From assembly GCA_020632035.1 (NCBI GenBank), contig JACKGG010000001.1:221483-285482 (forward strand): DNA of 64,000 nt. Reading direction: 5' to 3'. The notes beneath the pieces were generated by a model that saw only the letters and a list, made by a program, of their open reading frames with translations, was not told the origin of the DNA and searched no databases. Below, piece by piece: positions 31,360 through 59,180 of this stretch; the first letter of the stretch is position 1; every line of letters starts with the position of its first letter. Both the position numbers and the translations under genes were made by a program. Source of the DNA: Candidatus Nomurabacteria bacterium. Lineage in GTDB: Bacteria; Patescibacteriota; Minisyncoccia; Phycocordibacterales; UBA918.

Positions 31360-32787
31360 CTAACTTTCTAATCGCACGAACAGGTTTTCTGGCTTTTTGT
31401 TTTTTAAAACTGCTTCTTTAATGATTCTGTTTGCTTCTGGCATTACTGGATAGAGCAAACACCCAATTCGATACAACGCTAAGGTTAGTTCCTTAATGTT
31501 TTCAACAGCTTTTTCTTTATCAACCTTTATTAGTTTAAATGGTTCAGTCTCAGCAATTCTTTCATCAAGCTCTTGAATCCTACTCCATATATAATCACAA
31601 GCGCTCAAAAAATCACATGACTCAAGAGAGTTGGTATATCTTTCGTCAAAGACTATTGGCTCAGGTTCAGTAATCGGATCACCAAGGTGCGTCTCGGCCA
31701 TTTTCATAATTCTGGCAGTAAGATTTCCTAAACCGTTCACCAGATTTGCTGTATACCATTCATCCATTTTTTCCCATGTTAAGTCTGAATCATCCACAGG
31801 ATGAACATGACGGAGCATGATGTATCGTGTTGCGTCAGTGCCGTACTTCTTTACCAGCTCATACGGGTCAATCGTATTTCCAAGCGACTTACTCATCTTT
31901 TGTCCCCCGCTATTAATAAAACCGTGGTAGAAAATTTTATCAGTGGCTTTTATGTCGGCGCTCTTAAGCATCGCTTGCCAGATAACAGTCTGGAAGCGAA
32001 CTTGGTCTTTCCCAGCTAATTGCAATGTCTGTCCGTCTTGCCAAAATTTTGTAAACTTTCCTTCAGAATCTTCAGGCCATCCTAAGGTTGAGATGTAGTT
32101 GGTAAGAGCATCAAACCAAACATACATTACATGACCATCATCTTCAGGTACTGGTACTCCCCAATCCATTCTTGAGACCTCACGAGAAATACTCAAATCC
32201 TCCAAACCGCCTTGAACAAATTTCAACGCCTCTTCTCGTCGCCAGTCAGGCAATACTGATTCTTCTTTAGATAAATACTCTACTAAGTAGTCTTGATAGT
32301 TTGAGAGTTTGAAGAAGTAATTTTCTTCTTCGATTTCTTCGGGTGCAACACCATGGTCAGGACATTTACCGTCAACCAAATCTGATTCTACTTTAAAAGC
32401 TTCGCAACCAACGCAGTATAGGCCTTTATATTTCTTTTTATAGATGTCGCCTTTTGCGTCACAAAGTCGCCACATCTCTTCCGCTGCTTTTTTGTGGTCT
32501 TTGTTGGTGGTGCGAATGAAATTGTCGTAAGAAAGATTTAGAGCTTCTTTCAGATTGTTGAATTCGGAAGCAAATTTGTCAGCATAGGCTTGTCTATCTA
32601 TACCTGCTTCGTCTGCTTTCTTTGCTACCTTTTGGCCATGCTCATCTACACCAGTATTGAAAAATACTTCTTCTCCCATTAATCGCCAGTAGCGAGCTAG
32701 CGTGTCTGCTTGCACGAATTCAAGCGCATGCCCCATGTGAGGCTTGTCGTTTACATACGGCAAAGTTGTAGTGATGTATTTACTCAT
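31360..32787 (-). CDS. metG: Methionyl-tRNA synthetase (minimal core form)
   Basis: HIGH-type motif 'PHMGHALEF' and 'KMSKSLGN'. Confidence 0.95.
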   Translation of the reverse strand: MSKYITTTLPYVNDKPHMGHALEFVQADTLARYWRLMGEEVFFNTGVDEHGQKVAKKADEAGIDRQAYADKFASEFNNLKEALNLSYDNFIRTTNKDHKKAAEEMWRLCDAKGDIYKKKYKGLYCVGCEAFKVESDLVDGKCPDHGVAPEEIEEENYFFKLSNYQDYLVEYLSKEESVLPDWRREEALKFVQGGLEDLSISREVSRMDWGVPVPEDDGHVMYVWFDALTNYISTLGWPEDSEGKFTKFWQDGQTLQLAGKDQVRFQTVIWQAMLKSADIKATDKIFYHGFINSGGQKMSKSLGNTIDPYELVKKYGTDATRYIMLRHVHPVDDSDLTWEKMDEWYTANLVNGLGNLTARIMKMAETHLGDPITEPEPIVFDERYTNSLESCDFLSACDYIWSRIQELDERIAETEPFKLIKVDKEKAVENIKELTLALYRIGCLLYPVMPEANRIIKEAVLKNKKPENLFVRLES

Positions 32788-32801
32788 TACAATATATAAC
32801 C

Positions 32802-34193
32802 TTATTTAAGACGTTGAATCAAATCTGCGATAGCTACTCTTTCCTGCTCACCGGTATCTCTGTCACGCACAGTCACCGTGTCAGCTAATTCTGGCTTTTC
32901 TTGGCCGAGGGTTTCAAAGTCAATCACAATGCAACTAGGAGTTCCTATTTCATCTTGTCGACGATATCGCTTTCCGACATTTCCGTTGTCATCCCAAGCT
33001 ACGTTGCCAAATTCTGCTTTAAGAAGCTTAAATACCTCCCGAGCTTTTTCTACTAGTTCTGGCTTGTTCTTAAGTAATGGTGACACTGCAACTCGGTTTG
33101 GAGCAAGATCAGGATGTAACTTCAAAACCGTACGTGTGTTTCCGTCCATTTCTTCTTCATGATAAGCGTCAGCCAGCACAGCAAGGAACATCCTCCCAAG
33201 ACCAACCGATGTCTCAAGTATCCAAGGGATGTATTTCTCTCCGGTTTCGGGATCTGTGTAATTTAGATCTACTCCTGAGAACTTCATGTGTTGAGTTAGG
33301 TCGTAGTCTGTCCTGTCGTGTATTCCTTCTAACTCGTCAAAACCTCCTGGGAAATTGTATTCAATATCCCAAGCATCAGCAGCATAGAACACTAGGTTTT
33401 TGTGTTGAGTGAAGCGCAGATTTTCCGGCTTAATACCAATTGATACGTACCAATCAAAACGATCTTGCTTAATCTTTTCAAATGCTTCTTTGTTTTCATT
33501 CGGCTTCACGAAAAACTGTGTGTCCGCCTGTTCCATTTCTCTAGTACGAAACAAGAAATTTCTCGGAGAGATTTCGTTTCTAAACGCCTTGCCAATTTGA
33601 GCCATTCCAAAAGGTAATTTTGGTGACATTGAATTTAAAATATTCTTATAGTTCAGGTATATACCCTGACAAGCTTCTCCGGGAAGATACACTGGTTCGC
33701 CGCCCTCAGAGGTAAAATCACCAAGATTGGATTTCACCAACAAATTAAACGCACGAGCTGGAGTAAAATCTTTTTGACCACATTTTGGACATGAAATTTT
33801 CTCTCTATTCTCTTCAAAGAGTTTATTGATTTCCTCTTCGGACATCTTTTCGTCTGCAGTAACGCCAATCGCTTCAAGTTCTTTATCTACTCGAATCCTT
33901 GTATTACATTCTCGACAATCAGCTAAGGGATCTGAGAAGCCTGATGTATGACCACTAGCCTCCCATACCTTTGGATGCTTGAACATTCCAGAGTCGATTC
34001 CGTAGTAATTTTCCTTATCATAAACGTTAGCTTTCCACCACAGTTGTTTAAGATTATTCAAAAGCTCTACCCCGTTTGGACCATAATCAAATACCCCAGC
34101 TAATCCTCCATAAATCTCACTACCTTGAAATACAAAACCACGTCGCTTACAAAGCGAAACTACCTTCTCCATCGTGTCTGACTTTTTATCCAT
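32802..34193 (-). CDS. glyQS: Glycyl-tRNA synthetase (alpha2 type)
   Basis: 'RGFVFQGSEIYGGLAGVFDYGPNGVELLNN' plus class II motifs. Confidence 0.95.
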   Translation of the reverse strand: MDKKSDTMEKVVSLCKRRGFVFQGSEIYGGLAGVFDYGPNGVELLNNLKQLWWKANVYDKENYYGIDSGMFKHPKVWEASGHTSGFSDPLADCRECNTRIRVDKELEAIGVTADEKMSEEEINKLFEENREKISCPKCGQKDFTPARAFNLLVKSNLGDFTSEGGEPVYLPGEACQGIYLNYKNILNSMSPKLPFGMAQIGKAFRNEISPRNFLFRTREMEQADTQFFVKPNENKEAFEKIKQDRFDWYVSIGIKPENLRFTQHKNLVFYAADAWDIEYNFPGGFDELEGIHDRTDYDLTQHMKFSGVDLNYTDPETGEKYIPWILETSVGLGRMFLAVLADAYHEEEMDGNTRTVLKLHPDLAPNRVAVSPLLKNKPELVEKAREVFKLLKAEFGNVAWDDNGNVGKRYRRQDEIGTPSCIVIDFETLGQEKPELADTVTVRDRDTGEQERVAIADLIQRLK

Positions 34194-36139: not shown

Positions 36140-36718
36140 TTATAAATGACTGATATCAATGGCGTGGGCATACAGTTGATTGATTTTTTGTTGTGTCTCG
36201 GGAGTCATATGTTTAGCAATATTGGCTGGCTCTTCTTCTCGGACCCCTTCTGGAATCTTTTTAGTATCAACGTAGCCAAGCTCTGACAATATTCGAAGCT
36301 GAATTACTTCTTCAACAAAAGTACGTTCCTCTAGGTCCTTTTGTAAAACCTCAAGACTTTCCTTAACTAAATCAAACAATTCGCAAGCTGTTTCTTCTCC
36401 CTTAAGAAAACGACGTAAAAGCCTAAAAAGTGACACTACACTTCCCCGGGCAGATTTATCTATGGCTTCACTATAATAGTTCTTTAGGGCTTCGATACTG
36501 CCGACTTTCCACCCTCGCTTTCCTTTTACCAACGAGACTCTTACCAGAGAAAAGTCTTGTAGGGCGTAGCGTTGGCGGGAACGTTCTTCTCTAGCGCTCC
36601 GTGCATCTGCATACAACATCCCCGCCTCTCTGGTAAACAAAAGGTAAGAGCCGTCGGCGGTGTTTCGATTGAAAGTACCGCACACTAAAGCTTCTGTGGT
36701 GTAGGTAACGTAGGCCAT
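36140..36718 (-). CDS. recO: DNA repair protein RecO (short form)
   Basis: N-terminal OB fold 'EALVCGTFNRNTADGSYLLFTREAGMLYADARSAREERSRQRYALQDFSLVRVSLVKGKRGW' matches the RecO pattern. Confidence 0.65.
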   Translation of the reverse strand: MAYVTYTTEALVCGTFNRNTADGSYLLFTREAGMLYADARSAREERSRQRYALQDFSLVRVSLVKGKRGWKVGSIEALKNYYSEAIDKSARGSVVSLFRLLRRFLKGEETACELFDLVKESLEVLQKDLEERTFVEEVIQLRILSELGYVDTKKIPEGVREEEPANIAKHMTPETQQKINQLYAHAIDISHL

Positions 36719-39700
36719 TTAGGTTAGCTCCATTTTGAAACTAAAGTTAATGTCTCCTGCTTGAAGGGATTCTTGATCAGCCTCACCAAACTCAATTGAT
36801 TTGGCTCCAACTGTTTTAGTAATTAGGTCCTGGTGATCGGTAACAACCTTTTGTCCGGAGTTGTCGGTCTTAATCGTGAGCAAAATCGAGTCCCGAGGCG
36901 AAAGGCCTTCGGCCTTTCGCCTCCCCTGCACCGCCCGCATTAGTTCACGCACCACCCCTTCAGAGATAAGTTCGGGAGTAAGATTTGTGTCTATTGTTAC
37001 AGAATCTGCCACTTTGTAAGATTTTGCATTTAATTCATCAAGGATAACATCAGTAAGTTCACCAGAAAGCGCCGGGCCAGAAACGGATGATATTGGTTGT
37101 CGCACTTTTATGCCAATCTTTGTTCGGGCCTCTAGCGCTTGGGTCACAATATCTCTAGTCCTTTGCATCTCTGCCAATATATCCGTGTTAACTTCATCCG
37201 CATCTGGCCACTTTGCTAAATGTACGCTTTCAGAATCAGACTCCTTCTTTACTTTTTGCCAAAGATATTCAGCATAAAAAGGCATCGATGGAGCCATCAC
37301 TAATGCAAGAATACTTAGTGTATGACGAAGTGTAGCCAGCGCCTTAACTCTATCCTCCGCATCTTCTCCTTTAAACCTGTCGCGACTTCGACGTAAGTAC
37401 CATACAGATAAATCGTCAACAAACTCGGTAATTGGTCGAGTGGCCTTATCTAGTTCATAATTCTTATATCCATATGTCGTTTCTGAAACCAGTTGGTTAA
37501 GACGATTCAAAATCCATTTATCTAGAACATTATCTGAATCACTAGATGCCGAGGTATCATCAGCAAACATTTCGTACATCGTCAGAACATTATGTAGACG
37601 ACCAATGTTTTTTCTTTGCAGTTCCAGAACTTCTTTTTCAATAAAGTTGAAATCTTCCCCCTTTATACCAGGTGAAGACAACAAATAAAAGCGCATGGCA
37701 TCAGCACCAATTGTATGAGCTACATCCATTGGGTCTGGATAATTTTGTAATGACTTACTCATTTTACGTCCATCCTCTGCCAAAACCGTCCCATTTACGA
37801 CCACGTTTTCAAACGGTGACTTACCAAAAAGAGCGGTCCCTAGAACAATGAGCGAATAGAACCATCCTCGAGTTTGATCCAAGCCTTCAGCAATAAAGTT
37901 TGCTGGGAAATGCTTGTCCTCAAAATCTTCAGCACACTCAAACGGATAATGGTGTTGTCCGTATGGCATCGAACCACTTTCAAACCAACAGTCAAAGACG
38001 TCCGGTACTCTTTCCAGCCTTACCTCACCTTCGTATAAATCAATCTTGTCGATATACGGTCGATGAAAATCTAGTTCGTAGTTATCGTTGTGAGGGATTG
38101 GAATGAATTTAAGCTTTCGAACTTCTGCATTATCTAACCAAAATTCATTCTTTTCTCTAATCTCTACCGCTCTATCAATATTTGCCCCCTCAGAGACACA
38201 CGCTGTAGCAAAAGTTGAGCTAACGTGACCGATAATCAAAATATTTCTATCTTTGTAGTTATTCTCTAATGAATAAAGTAAATCACCGACTCTTTTCTGT
38301 ACGTCAACTCTGTTCTCATCAACCCCTTCAACCACCCTAGTAAATTGATCCTTGAAATCTTTATATAATTCTTGGTGTGTATTCCATTTTCTACCTTGAA
38401 ATTCTGCCCCAGCTTGAATTTCTCTTATTCTTTCATCGACAACAACTTGTTCTGAAGAAAGACCCAATTTTTCTCTTACAATCTCAGCGGTTTTTTTAGT
38501 TCTGTGGAATGGAGATACTATAATCAAATCTATATTTTCTTTTTTAAGTTCCGCCGCAGTTTCTTCTACCTGCCTAACACCAAGGTCAGTAAGATTATCT
38601 TCATAGTTTACATCTGTCCTAATTACTCTCTCAATATTACTTTCTGCTTCACCATGTCTCATCAAGAAATACTTATTACCGCTCTTTGGTACATACTCCT
38701 GAATCTCAGCTAAACTACCAAATACTTTGTATTCGCCTGTAGTTGGATTCTTCCAAATTGGCAACGGTGCTCCCCAGTATCTTTGTCTACTCACGGCCCA
38801 ATCACGAGCGCCATCTAGCCATTTACCAAAGCGGTTTTTACCAACGTGCTCGGGAACCCATTTTACTTTGTCGTTGGCTTCTACCAACTGGTCTTTGATT
38901 TTTGTCACCTCCACAAACCACGACGTAGTAGCGTAGTTCAAAAGTGGTGTATCACAACGCCAACAATGCGGATAGCTGTGAGTGATATTTTCCTTCTTAA
39001 GAATAACCCCTTTAGCTTGCAAAGCCTTCAGGATTTCAATATCAGCATCTTTATGGTCCACTCCAGATGCCTCGTCGTCCTTTGGCTTTACTAGTTGTCC
39101 GGCGAAGTCAGTCACAAAGTCCGTAAAGTGCCCAGCTTCGTCTACATGGTGCACTATCGGCACATTGTTGGCCTGAGCGAGCTTCATGTCATCATCTCCG
39201 TAGGCCGGCGCAATATGGACGGCACCAGTTCCTTCTTCACCCACTTCTACATAGTCTGCGTGATAAAGAGTCCAGGCTTTATCTTTGTTTTCGAGGTCTT
39301 GATTTTGCAGATAATTAAATGGTGGTTGATATTTTTTACCAAGTAATTCTGAGCCCTTGAATTCTTCGATTATTTCTATTTCAAAACCATTTAATTGAGG
39401 TAACCTGCCTTTAGCGAGAACTACAAAAGTTTTTGAATCGCCCTCATTCACTTTTACTTTCACATAATCCAAGTCCTGATGTATGGCAGCTGCCATATTG
39501 CCCGGCAAAGTCCATGGTGTAGTTGTCCAAACAAGTAGACTGGTGTCAGTCATCTCACCTGCTTCATCGAGCAGTGGGAGCTTCACCGTAACAGCAATAT
39601 CCTTAATATCTTTATATCCTTGATTCACTTCAAAGTTCGACAAGGTTGTCCCACAACGAGGACACAAATGCATGCTTTTGAAGCCCTCATACACAAGACC

Positions 39701-40255
39701 TTTTTCATGTAGAGATTTAAATACCCACCAGACGCTTTCAGTATAAGTACTGTCCATTGTCCGGTAGTCATTTTCCATATCGACAAACCGGCCCATGCGC
39801 GGGATGATTTTTTTCCAGTCGTCGGCGTATTCCAAAACAGCTTCACGAGCTTGTTCGTTAAAATTCTGAATCCCGTATTCTTCAATGTCTCGTTTGGTCG
39901 CTAGACCAAGCTTCTTCTCAATCAAATTTTCGAGTGGCAAACCATGACAATCCCAACCCCAGTTGCGCGCTACTCGATAGCCATTCATCGTCCAAAATCT
40001 TGGAATTGCATCCTTGATAGTACCGGCTAAAATATGACCGTAATGTGGCAAACCAGTTGCAAACGGTGGCCCATCATAAAAAACAAAATCCCCGACCGGC
40101 TCTTCGCCAGCTGGAGTTTCAATACTCTTCTTAAAAATATCATGCTCGACCCAAAAAGCCTGCATAAGCTCCTCTCTCTCGGCTGTTTCTGATTTAGGAA
40201 CAGCGTCAACAACTTCTACCGAATCGTTTTCACGTCCGTGCATTTTTTTATTCAT
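36719..40255 (-). CDS. ileS: Isoleucyl-tRNA synthetase (type 2) carrying an in-frame histidine-phosphatase domain insertion
   Basis: 'PPFATGLPHYGHIL' (HIGH motif), the CP1 editing region, 'WAVSRQRYWGAPLPIW', '...DCWFESGSMPYG', and 'KMSKSLQN'. The protein is 1178 aa, roughly 130 to 260 aa longer than typical IleRS proteins (about 920 to 1050 aa). Confidence 0.95.
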   Translation of the reverse strand: MNKKMHGRENDSVEVVDAVPKSETAEREELMQAFWVEHDIFKKSIETPAGEEPVGDFVFYDGPPFATGLPHYGHILAGTIKDAIPRFWTMNGYRVARNWGWDCHGLPLENLIEKKLGLATKRDIEEYGIQNFNEQAREAVLEYADDWKKIIPRMGRFVDMENDYRTMDSTYTESVWWVFKSLHEKGLVYEGFKSMHLCPRCGTTLSNFEVNQGYKDIKDIAVTVKLPLLDEAGEMTDTSLLVWTTTPWTLPGNMAAAIHQDLDYVKVKVNEGDSKTFVVLAKGRLPQLNGFEIEIIEEFKGSELLGKKYQPPFNYLQNQDLENKDKAWTLYHADYVEVGEEGTGAVHIAPAYGDDDMKLAQANNVPIVHHVDEAGHFTDFVTDFAGQLVKPKDDEASGVDHKDADIEILKALQAKGVILKKENITHSYPHCWRCDTPLLNYATTSWFVEVTKIKDQLVEANDKVKWVPEHVGKNRFGKWLDGARDWAVSRQRYWGAPLPIWKNPTTGEYKVFGSLAEIQEYVPKSGNKYFLMRHGEAESNIERVIRTDVNYEDNLTDLGVRQVEETAAELKKENIDLIIVSPFHRTKKTAEIVREKLGLSSEQVVVDERIREIQAGAEFQGRKWNTHQELYKDFKDQFTRVVEGVDENRVDVQKRVGDLLYSLENNYKDRNILIIGHVSSTFATACVSEGANIDRAVEIREKNEFWLDNAEVRKLKFIPIPHNDNYELDFHRPYIDKIDLYEGEVRLERVPDVFDCWFESGSMPYGQHHYPFECAEDFEDKHFPANFIAEGLDQTRGWFYSLIVLGTALFGKSPFENVVVNGTVLAEDGRKMSKSLQNYPDPMDVAHTIGADAMRFYLLSSPGIKGEDFNFIEKEVLELQRKNIGRLHNVLTMYEMFADDTSASSDSDNVLDKWILNRLNQLVSETTYGYKNYELDKATRPITEFVDDLSVWYLRRSRDRFKGEDAEDRVKALATLRHTLSILALVMAPSMPFYAEYLWQKVKKESDSESVHLAKWPDADEVNTDILAEMQRTRDIVTQALEARTKIGIKVRQPISSVSGPALSGELTDVILDELNAKSYKVADSVTIDTNLTPELISEGVVRELMRAVQGRRKAEGLSPRDSILLTIKTDNSGQKVVTDHQDLITKTVGAKSIEFGEADQESLQAGDINFSFKMELT
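38120..38677 (-). other. Histidine phosphatase (PGAM/SixA/CobC-like) domain embedded within ileS, approximately aa 527-712
   Basis: 'YFLMRHGEAESN' (RHGE..N), 'VSPFHRTKKTAEIV' (sSp.xRa.qTA), and 'ILIIGHVSS' (second catalytic His). It sits in the loop between 'PLPIW' and 'HRPYID' of the IleRS catalytic core. Confidence 0.7.
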
Positions 40256-40360: not shown

Positions 40361-40397
40361 AGAAGTAGCCGGCGCCTTCGGCGCCGGCTACTTCTTA
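40361..40397. terminator. Terminator aagaagtagccggcgcc-ttcg-gcgccggctacttctt
   Basis: Perfect long palindrome between the membrane-protein gene and the ileS promoter region. Confidence 0.65.
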
Positions 40398-40531: not shown

Positions 40532-41611
40532 CTACCTGATCTGCGTTTCCATCGGACCAACCTTCCCTTTCGTATCAATATTGACTATTTCTCTACCAAG
40601 TATCTGCCCTCTAGCTGTCTCTACACTGCACCGCCAAACACCAGGAAAGAAACTTTCGGCTTTAGTGTAGCCCCCATAACCACCTTGGTTAATACCGGAT
40701 ATATCGTACCCTAGGCGAAAATGTTCCCGCCAGGTACCAGCTTCGTCTTTGTATTCCCAGCGATGATAAATCTTGGTTGAAAGTTTAGTTGGAGCATATA
40801 CTCTAGCAAAGCAGGCAATCGAACCTCCAGTTGGATGGATAACCGGATGTATAAATGGAATACTCCGGTACCAAGGTTGGAGTTCACTCACCACCCGATA
40901 CCCCCCACTTTCTAGCTTATTCACACTCTGGACTATTTCCATGTCAGTCAGAGAAAGTGGGATTGGTGGAATCAAGCTAGTGAAATATAGAACATTAAAA
41001 CCAACATACATAAAACCAACAGCCAAAATCACCCTTCTGATATTAGCCTCCATAAAGTTTGGGACAATTTTATATAGGATTCGTATGACGAAGCTCACAA
41101 TCACTATAGAAATAAACCCACTCAAAACAAACATCCAATCGCCCATGATGCCGGTTAAAACCGGCATCACTAAAACTACGTAAGAAAAAAGCCCGATGAA
41201 ATATAGGGTAATGTTGTATACCAGCCGATCCGAACGTTTCCCCAAAAACTCATTCCCTAGTATCACTACTAGTATCAAAACTAAAAATGGTGCACTGGCC
41301 AGCCAATCTCCACTTCTACCATAGAAAATTAGCATTCCAGACAACAAACCACCAAAAGAATATTGCATCAATATTGGTGCGTACTTCTTAAACCAACCAA
41401 CCATCACCCCCGGTGCTTTCTCAGCTACCCCTACATAAAGTAAAAGCATAGTGGTGGTAGCCAACAAGACATAAAAGAGCAGCACAAGATTATCTACCAA
41501 ATTATCAATTTGGTTGAGTAGTATGGTGTCAGTTATGAACCCCAATATAAATCCAAATGTCAGCCAATGGTGACGAATGAAACTAAAGAGTCCTCTGGTT
41601 TTATCAAACAT
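40532..41611 (-). CDS. Hypothetical polytopic membrane protein with soluble C-terminal domain
   Basis: About 8 hydrophobic segments, then an approximately 110-aa Gly/Tyr-rich C-terminal domain. Confidence 0.45.
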   Translation of the reverse strand: MFDKTRGLFSFIRHHWLTFGFILGFITDTILLNQIDNLVDNLVLLFYVLLATTTMLLLYVGVAEKAPGVMVGWFKKYAPILMQYSFGGLLSGMLIFYGRSGDWLASAPFLVLILVVILGNEFLGKRSDRLVYNITLYFIGLFSYVVLVMPVLTGIMGDWMFVLSGFISIVIVSFVIRILYKIVPNFMEANIRRVILAVGFMYVGFNVLYFTSLIPPIPLSLTDMEIVQSVNKLESGGYRVVSELQPWYRSIPFIHPVIHPTGGSIACFARVYAPTKLSTKIYHRWEYKDEAGTWREHFRLGYDISGINQGGYGGYTKAESFFPGVWRCSVETARGQILGREIVNIDTKGKVGPMETQIR

Positions 41612-59106: not shown

Positions 59107-59180
59107 GGCGGCTATAGTATAACGGTTAGTGCATCGGTTTGTGGTACCGATAGTTCGGGTTCGATTCCCGGTAGCCGCCC
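59107..59180 (+). tRNA. tRNA-His (anticodon GTG) with encoded G-1
   Basis: Folded by hand: acceptor GCGGCUA/UAGCCGC, D-stem GUAU/GUGC, anticodon stem UCGGU/ACCGA with loop UUGUGGU (GUG), T-arm UCGGG-UUCGAUU-CCCGG, and an extra 5' G opposite discriminator C73. CCA is not encoded. Confidence 0.85.

Follow-up and report, generated by a model that had tools for sequence, protein, structure and literature searches.

Aminoacyl-tRNA synthetases (aaRSs) are among the most conserved enzymes, and their catalytic cores have gained very few extra domains since the editing domain. The isoleucyl-tRNA synthetase (IleRS) gene, ileS, in a 64,000-nucleotide stretch of a Candidatus Nomurabacteria genome (contig JACKGG010000001.1, positions 221,483–285,482; hereafter the window) raises the question of what an extra block of about 200 residues is doing in the middle of such a core. 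A first-pass annotation of this DNA had proposed that the block is a complete histidine-phosphatase domain. We conclude that the gene product is probably a bifunctional enzyme, in which a catalytically active branch-1 histidine phosphatase is nested in the connective peptide (CP) 3 subdomain of a type-2 IleRS, in an association kept by selection. A second, unrelated and apparently active centre would then be fixed inside IleRS across a large bacterial radiation.

The first question is what the block is. In the translated protein, the Pfam tRNA-synt_1 match is split around a match to His_Phos_1 (PF00300) at residues 530–697, which scores E = 1.2e-27 and 97.3 bits in the whole protein and E = 5.3e-29 and 101.7 bits when the segment is excised (cut-off 21.7). 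The coordinates 38120..38677 translate to exactly residues 527–712, and the placement of these residues in the histidine phosphatase superfamily is borne out jointly by sequence profiles, structural modelling and a fold search. Residues 521–724, modelled with AlphaFold2 on 47 diverged sequences, yield a prediction of high quality (pLDDT 95, pTM 0.91), and model and fold search both give the alpha/beta PGAM fold. Small-substrate phosphatases lead the fold search with 181–184 aligned residues, the cap-less SixA aligns over 137, and the values are lower for dPGM (18.1), SixA (15.8), PGAM5 and Sts. The best sequence match in the PDB is 9mmh (E = 9e-12). The insert scores below the equivalog cut-offs of CobC (69.1 versus 162.9), PspA (58.5 versus 350), SixA (47.3 versus 74.5) and GpmB (52.1 versus 261), and below those of dPGM (GpmA-type NF010713 and archaeal NF038349). 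As modelled, it is a member of the branch-1 histidine phosphatase superfamily that resembles the capped small-substrate phosphatases and fits no characterised subfamily. Its predicted catalytic hexad consists of R533, H534, N540, R585, E612 and H677. All of the catalytic hallmarks that had been listed are present and in order, with one correction of spacing: the acidic residue, E612, follows R585 by 27 residues rather than by about 35. A phage protein family of unknown function, phrog_12933, matches both the insert (E = 4e-20) and a free-standing relative, P0032 (E = 4e-25), so related histidine phosphatases occur in phage genomes too.

The host of this domain is equally well defined. As described in the annotation, ileS is a single uninterrupted open reading frame (ORF) of 1178 aa on the minus strand (36719..40255, stop codon at 36719–36721), and all of the quoted motifs were located: HYGH (residues 71–74), WAVSRQRYWGAPLPIW (486–501), LMRHGEAESN (531–540), SPFHRTKKTA (581–590), IIGHVSS (674–680), HRPYID (731–736), DCWFESGSMPYG (755–766) and KMSKS (831–835). 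The whole protein passes the TIGR00392 ileS model despite the insertion (869.7 bits against a cut-off of 621.4). Its nearest PDB entry is the Priestia megaterium IleRS2 8c8u (E = 3e-210), to which it is collinear over the full length; Thermus thermophilus 1ile follows at 9e-199, whereas the type-1 Staphylococcus aureus enzyme 1ffy reaches 8e-95. The C-terminus matches DUF5915, as in type-2 IleRS (Pfam), and the type-1 C-terminal zinc-binding domain is absent. Residues P70, H71, G73 and H74 and the editing motifs WTTTPWT (243–249) and GTGxVHxAPAxG (342–353) are invariant in an alignment of 53 sequences. The protein does not belong to the MupA/MupB mupirocin-resistance IleRSs (651–696 bits against the NCBIfam exception cut-off of 1900) nor to NF040702, ileS_w_GNAT (320.6 bits against 1999), and Pfam gives it no acetyltransferase match. 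Judged by these sequence features, the host is a bona fide, canonical type-2 IleRS that is predicted to be editing-competent. The parts of the gene are as follows.

36719..40255, minus strand: ileS, type-2 IleRS, 1178 aa (TIGR00392 and the 8c8u alignment)
40034..40045, minus strand: HIGH signature HYGH, residues 71–74, invariant in the alignment
38954..39664, minus strand: CP core and CP1 editing domain, between the kept zinc-site pairs C198/C201 and C431/C434
38771..38809, minus strand: CP2–CP3 linker ARDWAVSRQRYWG, residues 483–495
38696..38770, minus strand: N-terminal remnant of CP3, residues 496–520, with the first knuckle CxxC lost (KNPTTGE)
38084..38695, minus strand: inserted His_Phos_1 domain with its linkers, residues 521–724; core at 38120..38677, residues 527–712
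38654..38659, minus strand: R533 and H534 (RHG motif), with H534 as predicted nucleophile and phosphate acceptor
38636..38638, minus strand: N540, predicted phosphate-pocket residue
38501..38503, minus strand: R585, predicted second phosphate-binding arginine
38420..38422, minus strand: E612, predicted general acid
38225..38227, minus strand: H677, predicted second catalytic histidine
38000..38083, minus strand: C-terminal remnant of CP3, residues 725–752, with the second knuckle CxxC lost (LYEGEVR)
37958..37993, minus strand: DCWFESGSMPYG, where the second half of the Rossmann fold restarts
37751..37765, minus strand: KMSKS signature, residues 831–835
37088..37522, minus strand: anticodon-binding domain (Pfam Anticodon_1), residues 912–1056
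36728..37003, minus strand: C-terminal DUF5915 region typical for type-2 IleRS (Pfam), residues 1085–1176

Could the fusion be an artefact, with a chimeric assembly or a frameshift merging two genes? The only feature that speaks for this is base composition, since the insert (38084–38695) has a GC fraction of 0.355 against 0.432 for the other parts of ileS. The same unbroken in-frame architecture, with PF00300, is found in 120/120 of the nearest full-length relatives (64–87% identical, from contigs of up to 1 Mb that carry the label Kaiserbacteria or Paceibacteria), which come from independent samples. A scan of one genome per species with a single-sequence query gave at least 572 loci (Parcubacteria/Paceibacteria), of which the best 80 were inspected. 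All 80 have the N-terminal part of IleRS, the phosphatase and the C-terminal part of IleRS in one ORF; they cover Kaiser-, Nomura-, Wolfe-, Taylor-, Vogel- and Lloydbacteria and Minisyncoccia, and include the closed 0.99-Mb chromosome CP060229.1. A partial copy that is 100% identical has also been deposited independently at NCBI (P0121). Mis-assembly and a frameshift between two genes, the outcome that would have undone the proposal, are therefore excluded by the 80 species loci and 120 relatives.

The same surveys establish that the fusion is an old, lineage-wide trait found in hundreds of related species. When 1.84 billion representative sequences were searched with the insert alone, 367 matched at E<=1e-10, and about 95 of the best 150 of these are IleRS fusions or fragments of them with the domain at the same site and 30–49% identity between inserts. 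Two loci depart from the plain pattern. L096:3-4214 contains an IleRS frame with His_Phos segments in which TGA occurs eight times in frame and is the only stop codon present. This pattern is consistent with UGA recoding (genetic code 25 or 4) and, if so read, would place the fusion in such a lineage too. In L129:2337-5857, on a 733-kb contig, the four ORFs that make up a fused ileS lie in different frames; these breaks most probably stem from assembly indels, though the locus may be a pseudogene. Short proteins on long contigs that combine PF00133 with PF00300 (P0019) were suspected to represent split genes, and here too the differing frames of the L129 pieces point most likely to assembly indels.

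If the fusion is real, is the inserted domain still an enzyme? In an alignment of 121 sequences, the insert is the most variable region of the protein, with a mean top-residue frequency of 0.55 against 0.85–0.89 for the two Rossmann halves. Nevertheless, R533, H534, N540, R585, E612 and H677 are each invariant (121/121), and the hexad is intact at all 80 of the species-genome loci and, among diverged fusions, in 99 of the 106 domains that are complete. The catalytic core that had been judged intact thus holds in every sequence of the first two sets. Insert length is confined to 221–233 aa, and the junction residues are highly conserved (PKSGN on one side, NAE...PHND.YELDFHRPY on the other). 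A decaying passenger or a mere spacer would be expected to lose its general acid and both histidines. The invariance of the hexad within the most variable region therefore makes it very likely that the domain is catalytically active, as predicted from sequence. A suggestion that the block is a selfish domain insertion drew no support: no intein/Hint family appears among the Pfam matches of the window protein, no homing motifs were found, the junctions (...EIQE/YVPKSGN and ...PHND/NYELD) are not intein-like, and purifying selection on the catalytic site is strong.

The likely chemistry follows from the established mechanism of the histidine-phosphatase family. The insert would stay within the mature protein, where R533, R585, N540 and H677 would grip the phosphate of the substrate. 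H534 would then attack this phosphate to give a phospho-histidine intermediate, with E612 donating a proton to the leaving group, and water would subsequently free the phosphate from phospho-H534. The insert has a helical cap, as in PspA, PhoE, CobC and GpgP, and no similarity at the level of dPGM; therefore a small phosphomonoester is the expected substrate, rather than a phosphoprotein or a mutase reaction, and the modelled fold favours this substrate class.

These structural features bear on the proposal that the domain is a phosphoprotein phosphatase that restores the synthetase after it has been inhibited by phosphorylation, with HipA/HipT-like toxin kinases as one conceivable source. Such kinases target GltX and TrpS, and the domain is tied to several synthetases (see below) with a patchy lineage distribution, as such a role might produce; the superfamily also includes protein phosphatases, among them the SixA, PGAM5 and Sts entries of the fold search. 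The connection to kinase toxins is conjectural, and models of defence systems give only a marginal PADLOC match (E = 0.006). We consider a protein phosphatase very unlikely even if the domain is active, and highly improbable as an account of the whole arrangement.

The second question is where in the synthetase the phosphatase sits. An extra block between PLPIW and HRPYID had been noted, and alignment to 8c8u confirms a net insertion of about 200 aa: residues 521–724 of the query align to chain residues 476–483. Published domain assignments for the Candida and yeast enzymes give the name CP3 to the stretch between the WxVSRxRYWG and D.WF.SG strands (PMC7191050; PMC7955072), and by this correspondence the insertion site is the CP3 subdomain. 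The topology of CP3 varies among the Candida, Thermus (where it binds zinc) and Staphylococcus enzymes, and it is the most variable and permissive subdomain (PMC7191050). A pair of CxxC motifs (CxxC...CxxC) flanks the insertion point in IleRS2 and in many diverged fusions, which puts the phosphatase within the zinc knuckle of CP3. The site is thus not a generic loop; it is CP3, within what is a zinc knuckle in relatives. In the clade of the window, both CxxC motifs of the knuckle have been lost (mean Cys count 0.03 and 0; 38000–38083 and 38696–38770), whereas relatives without the insert keep them. The zinc site of the CP core (C198/C201/C431/C434) is kept in the same clade.

The loss of the knuckle raises the alternative that the insert is a non-catalytic module, either a sensor of a phospho-ligand or a structural stand-in for the knuckle, that regulates or stabilises IleRS. 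The clade of the window lost both CxxC motifs yet kept the insert, and the strongly conserved junctions would also suit a structural part. We considered the idea that the phosphatase took over from the zinc knuckle and rejected it: diverged fusions carry CxxC...CxxC around the insert, and the coexistence of the two shows that the insert is no replacement. In addition, E612 is needed for turnover and not for binding, and it is invariant along with the other five residues across hundreds of IleRS fusions. A non-catalytic role therefore seems quite unlikely overall.

The location also bears on what the phosphatase might act on. CP3 is rooted directly behind the CP2–CP3 linker ARDWAVSRQRYWG (residues 483–495), and the yeast homolog of this linker lines a pocket for the tRNA 3′ end and reveromycin A (PMC7955072). 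By analogy, this suggests that the root of CP3 is close to the tRNA 3′-end pocket, and nothing beyond proximity. One could imagine from this a mechanistically integrated third active site whose substrate the synthetic site either generates or binds. Candidates would include a 2′/3′-phosphorylated or pyrophosphorylated tRNA CCA end (in repair or in reversal of a toxin modification), ADP, Ap4A-derived species and 3′-phosphonucleotides. Fusions that process nucleotides do exist in the superfamily, since the fold search returned the Nudix-linked MutT1/Rv2985 chains 3fjy and 9cxx. We know of no branch-1 histidine phosphatase that acts on an RNA 3′ end, which counts against this idea. Its other support comes from the neighbourhood of ileS and from further copies of the domain.

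Unfused relatives of the insert show how the two genes are associated. Two neighbours of ileS serve as synteny markers for the comparison.

36140..36718, minus strand: recO-like gene directly downstream of ileS (Pfam RecO_N and RecO_C), a synteny marker common to L081, L085 and L129
34200..36119, minus strand: DUF11-domain protein, the second synteny marker

The order in the window is ileS, recO and the DUF11 protein. At L085 the order is argS, a phosphatase gene (~196 aa), an insert-less ileS that keeps the knuckle (CECG...CPRCG), a small ORF, recO and a DUF11-like protein, and the start of the phosphatase gene abuts or overlaps the argS stop. At L081 (Pacebacteria), the free-standing P0032 lies 1.6 kb upstream of an insert-less IleRS of 980 aa on the same strand, with recO two genes further on. 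The argS gene is also found directly upstream of the fused ileS in L086, L089 and L129, and L129 keeps the order argS–ileS–recO–DUF11-like. In a distance tree, the two free-standing genes (P0032 at L081, and that of L085) nest within the clade of IleRS inserts. Gene order and nesting together therefore indicate one locus in two states, with the phosphatase either as a neighbour of ileS or inside its CP3. The insert may have derived from a stand-alone phosphatase gene of the Candidate Phyla Radiation (CPR) that adjoins ileS in relatives, and either direction of change is possible. Length alone is a poor criterion for a free-standing gene in such a comparison, and many of the short matches are fragments of fusions.

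Further copies of the domain occur at other sites. Several representatives hold more than one copy. One IleRS (P0339) has two tandem copies in CP3. Two others (P0322 and P0382, with cluster members on contigs up to 1.06 Mb) have an ordinary CP3, and their copies lie behind WFESGSMPYA and between the KMSKS/stem-contact region and the anticodon-binding domain. The hexad is kept in all copies of these three proteins although copies within the same protein share only ~36% identity. A protein with four copies (P0242) was at first a candidate for a four-copy IleRS and was reassigned on its motifs to valyl-tRNA synthetase (ValRS). Among the 120 ValRSs closest to P0242, about 70 hold one to three copies; those with copies are labelled Gracilibacteria or Peregrinibacteria, measure 1030–1626 aa and come from contigs of up to 1.37 Mb (P0242, P0394–P0511). 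The copies are mostly at the site equivalent to CP3, and some precede the WCISRQ strand. The domain is absent from the ValRSs of Nomura-, Magasanik- and Peribacteria. In the distance tree, the ValRS inserts form a clade apart from all IleRS inserts (mean identity 26% between the two groups and 33% within each), and IleRS and ValRS have therefore gained the domain independently at the same topological site. Comparison with related genomes thus reveals an insertion that is widespread and lineage-wide, with a convergent counterpart in a second synthetase.

Class Ia synthetases of these lineages carry other insertions as well. An IleRS of 1066 aa (P0336, JGI), a putative gene model, has an IS200-like Y1 transposase domain in-frame in CP1, His_Phos_1 in CP3 and a GNAT domain downstream. 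Among the relatives of the ValRSs (P0417, P0452, P0426 and P0420), precomputed Pfam matches include PF04480 (DUF559, endonuclease-like), PF00216 (HU DNA-binding) and PF16326. These architectures suggest that class Ia synthetases of these lineages tolerate insertions of many kinds.

Such tolerance is the main argument for regarding the phosphatase as a pure passenger: a housekeeping enzyme that ended up in a tolerant loop of a gene both essential and constitutively expressed, and whose loss would mean loss of the only copy in the cell. The naturally variable topology of CP3 (PMC7191050), the unrelated domains just described (GNAT and IS200-like Y1 in P0336; DUF559 and HU in ValRS relatives) and the metabolic phosphatases that are the nearest structural relatives of the insert all agree with it. 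It leaves unexplained the convergence in ValRS, the multiple copies per protein and the adjacency of unfused genes to ileS, and, for co-expression alone, nested insertions are far rarer than terminal fusions. We regard the passenger account as doubtful. The same observations supply the remaining support for an integrated third site, namely convergent nesting in CP3 of both IleRS and ValRS, the additional copies at further IleRS sites and a free-standing ortholog within an argS–ileS operon. The permissiveness of CP3 alone could yield such convergence without functional coupling (PMC7191050), and we hold an integrated site to be somewhat unlikely.

Our preferred reading, a selected bifunctional enzyme, draws on all three lines of evidence: together, the fusion, the gene order around ileS and the convergence with ValRS indicate that selection has favoured the pairing of the phosphatase with class Ia synthetases, as far as sequence comparison can tell. 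They signal partnership and are silent on whether the two chemistries are coupled. Several points weigh against this reading. (i) Conservation of the hexad is also compatible with tight binding of a phospho-ligand without turnover. (ii) In the ValRS family the Arg–His pair is universal, but of 83 complete domains just 54 have all six residues. Some copies have lost the acid or the second histidine and may be non-catalytic, as the non-catalytic alternative would have it. (iii) The verified free-standing genes linked to ileS number only two (P0032/L081 and L085), and the more distant free-standing homologs that were examined have no aaRS neighbour. (iv) The survey began from the IleRS insert, and the apparent specificity for IleRS and ValRS may partly mirror how the sequences were gathered. 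(v) An AlphaFold2 model of the full-length protein has a pLDDT of 73 and a pTM of 0.47, with a Rossmann core that is poor owing to a shallow alignment, and it gives no distance or orientation between the active sites, which deprives the integrated-site alternative of geometry as well.

What, then, would an active domain do? We tentatively lean toward a metabolite or nucleotide phosphomonoesterase that is held in 1:1 stoichiometry and proximity with IleRS and is chemically independent of aminoacylation. It is also possible, although we would put less weight on it, that the substrate of an active domain arises in the synthetic site or is held there; a tRNA with a phosphorylated 3′ end and a by-product nucleotide are two examples. 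The broadest version of this idea is that CPR class Ia synthetases convergently recruited a phosphatase as an extra catalytic site that serves the aminoacylation system itself, for instance by clearing by-product nucleotides, or tRNA 3′ ends that bear a phosphate or pyrophosphate, beside the synthetic pocket. We consider that version speculative and rather unlikely; if true, a phosphatase acting on the aminoacylation system would equip IleRS and ValRS with a new kind of proofreading or repair.

Comparison with known systems shows which parts of the arrangement have precedents. The window IleRS shares HIGH, KMSKS, the CP1 editing motifs, the CP-core zinc site, the anticodon-binding domain and DUF5915 with type-2 IleRSs (8c8u, 1ile and the yeast and Candida cytosolic enzymes), and differs from them in the extra folded enzyme domain of ~200 aa in CP3. 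It differs further from the Thermus enzyme, IleRS2 and the diverged fusions in that the knuckle cysteines are gone in its clade. The insert is 20–27% identical to PspA (4ij5), PhoE (1h2e), glucosyl-3-phosphoglycerate phosphatase (6s2q), the riboflavin-pathway HFP (9mmh) and CobC (6e4b); such phosphatases are free proteins of ~200 aa, whereas the window domain is nested in another enzyme. Branch-1 phosphatases are likewise joined covalently to a second catalytic domain in RNase H/acid phosphatase (PRK07238, Rv2228c type), Nudix-HP MutT1 (3fjy, 9cxx) and PFK-2/FBPase-2 (1bif), but those domains are arranged end-to-end, whereas that of the window lies inside the catalytic domain of its partner, and the partner is an aaRS. 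A further parallel in architecture is the CP1 editing domain, which is likewise hydrolytic, nested in the Rossmann fold through a connective peptide and separate in active site within one polypeptide (for the phosphatase, the activity is predicted). CP1, however, is universal in IleRS, ValRS and LeuRS and has proven proofreading activity, whereas the CP3 phosphatase is confined to certain lineages.

A precedent for an IleRS with an unrelated enzymatic domain is NF040702, ileS_w_GNAT, with its N-acetyltransferase; the window protein carries a different type of domain and is not a member, and P0336 has both GNAT and His_Phos. Synthetases with accessory enzymatic domains are thus already known from the GNAT-bearing IleRS of NCBIfam, and the sequences discussed here are public, but the fusion itself is undescribed in the literature that we found. 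A literature search, with most subscription journals outside its coverage, returned no paper on a histidine phosphatase in any synthetase, and a recent catalogue of synthetase domains mentions no phosphatase. The NCBI names for these public sequences are only ‘class I tRNA ligase family protein’, which makes the finding relevant to annotation. Taken with its ValRS counterpart and the operon-linked free-standing form, the fusion predicts an unrecognised link between a phosphatase and tRNA charging in minimal genomes. Independently of such a link, CP3 emerges as a natural, permissive domain-insertion site of class Ia synthetases that is useful for engineering.

The rest of the window offers a few minor observations. 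A short MetRS-like class I synthetase of 481 aa (31363–32805, minus strand) is without the inserted domain. The sole RNA gene detected within the window is a tRNA-His at 59108–59180. The spacer between ileS and the DUF2914 gene upstream of it (40532..41611, minus strand) contains a perfect GC-rich inverted repeat at 40362–40394 (GAAGTAGCCGGCGCC TTC GGCGCCGGCTACTTC), which is probably the terminator hairpin of the DUF2914 gene.

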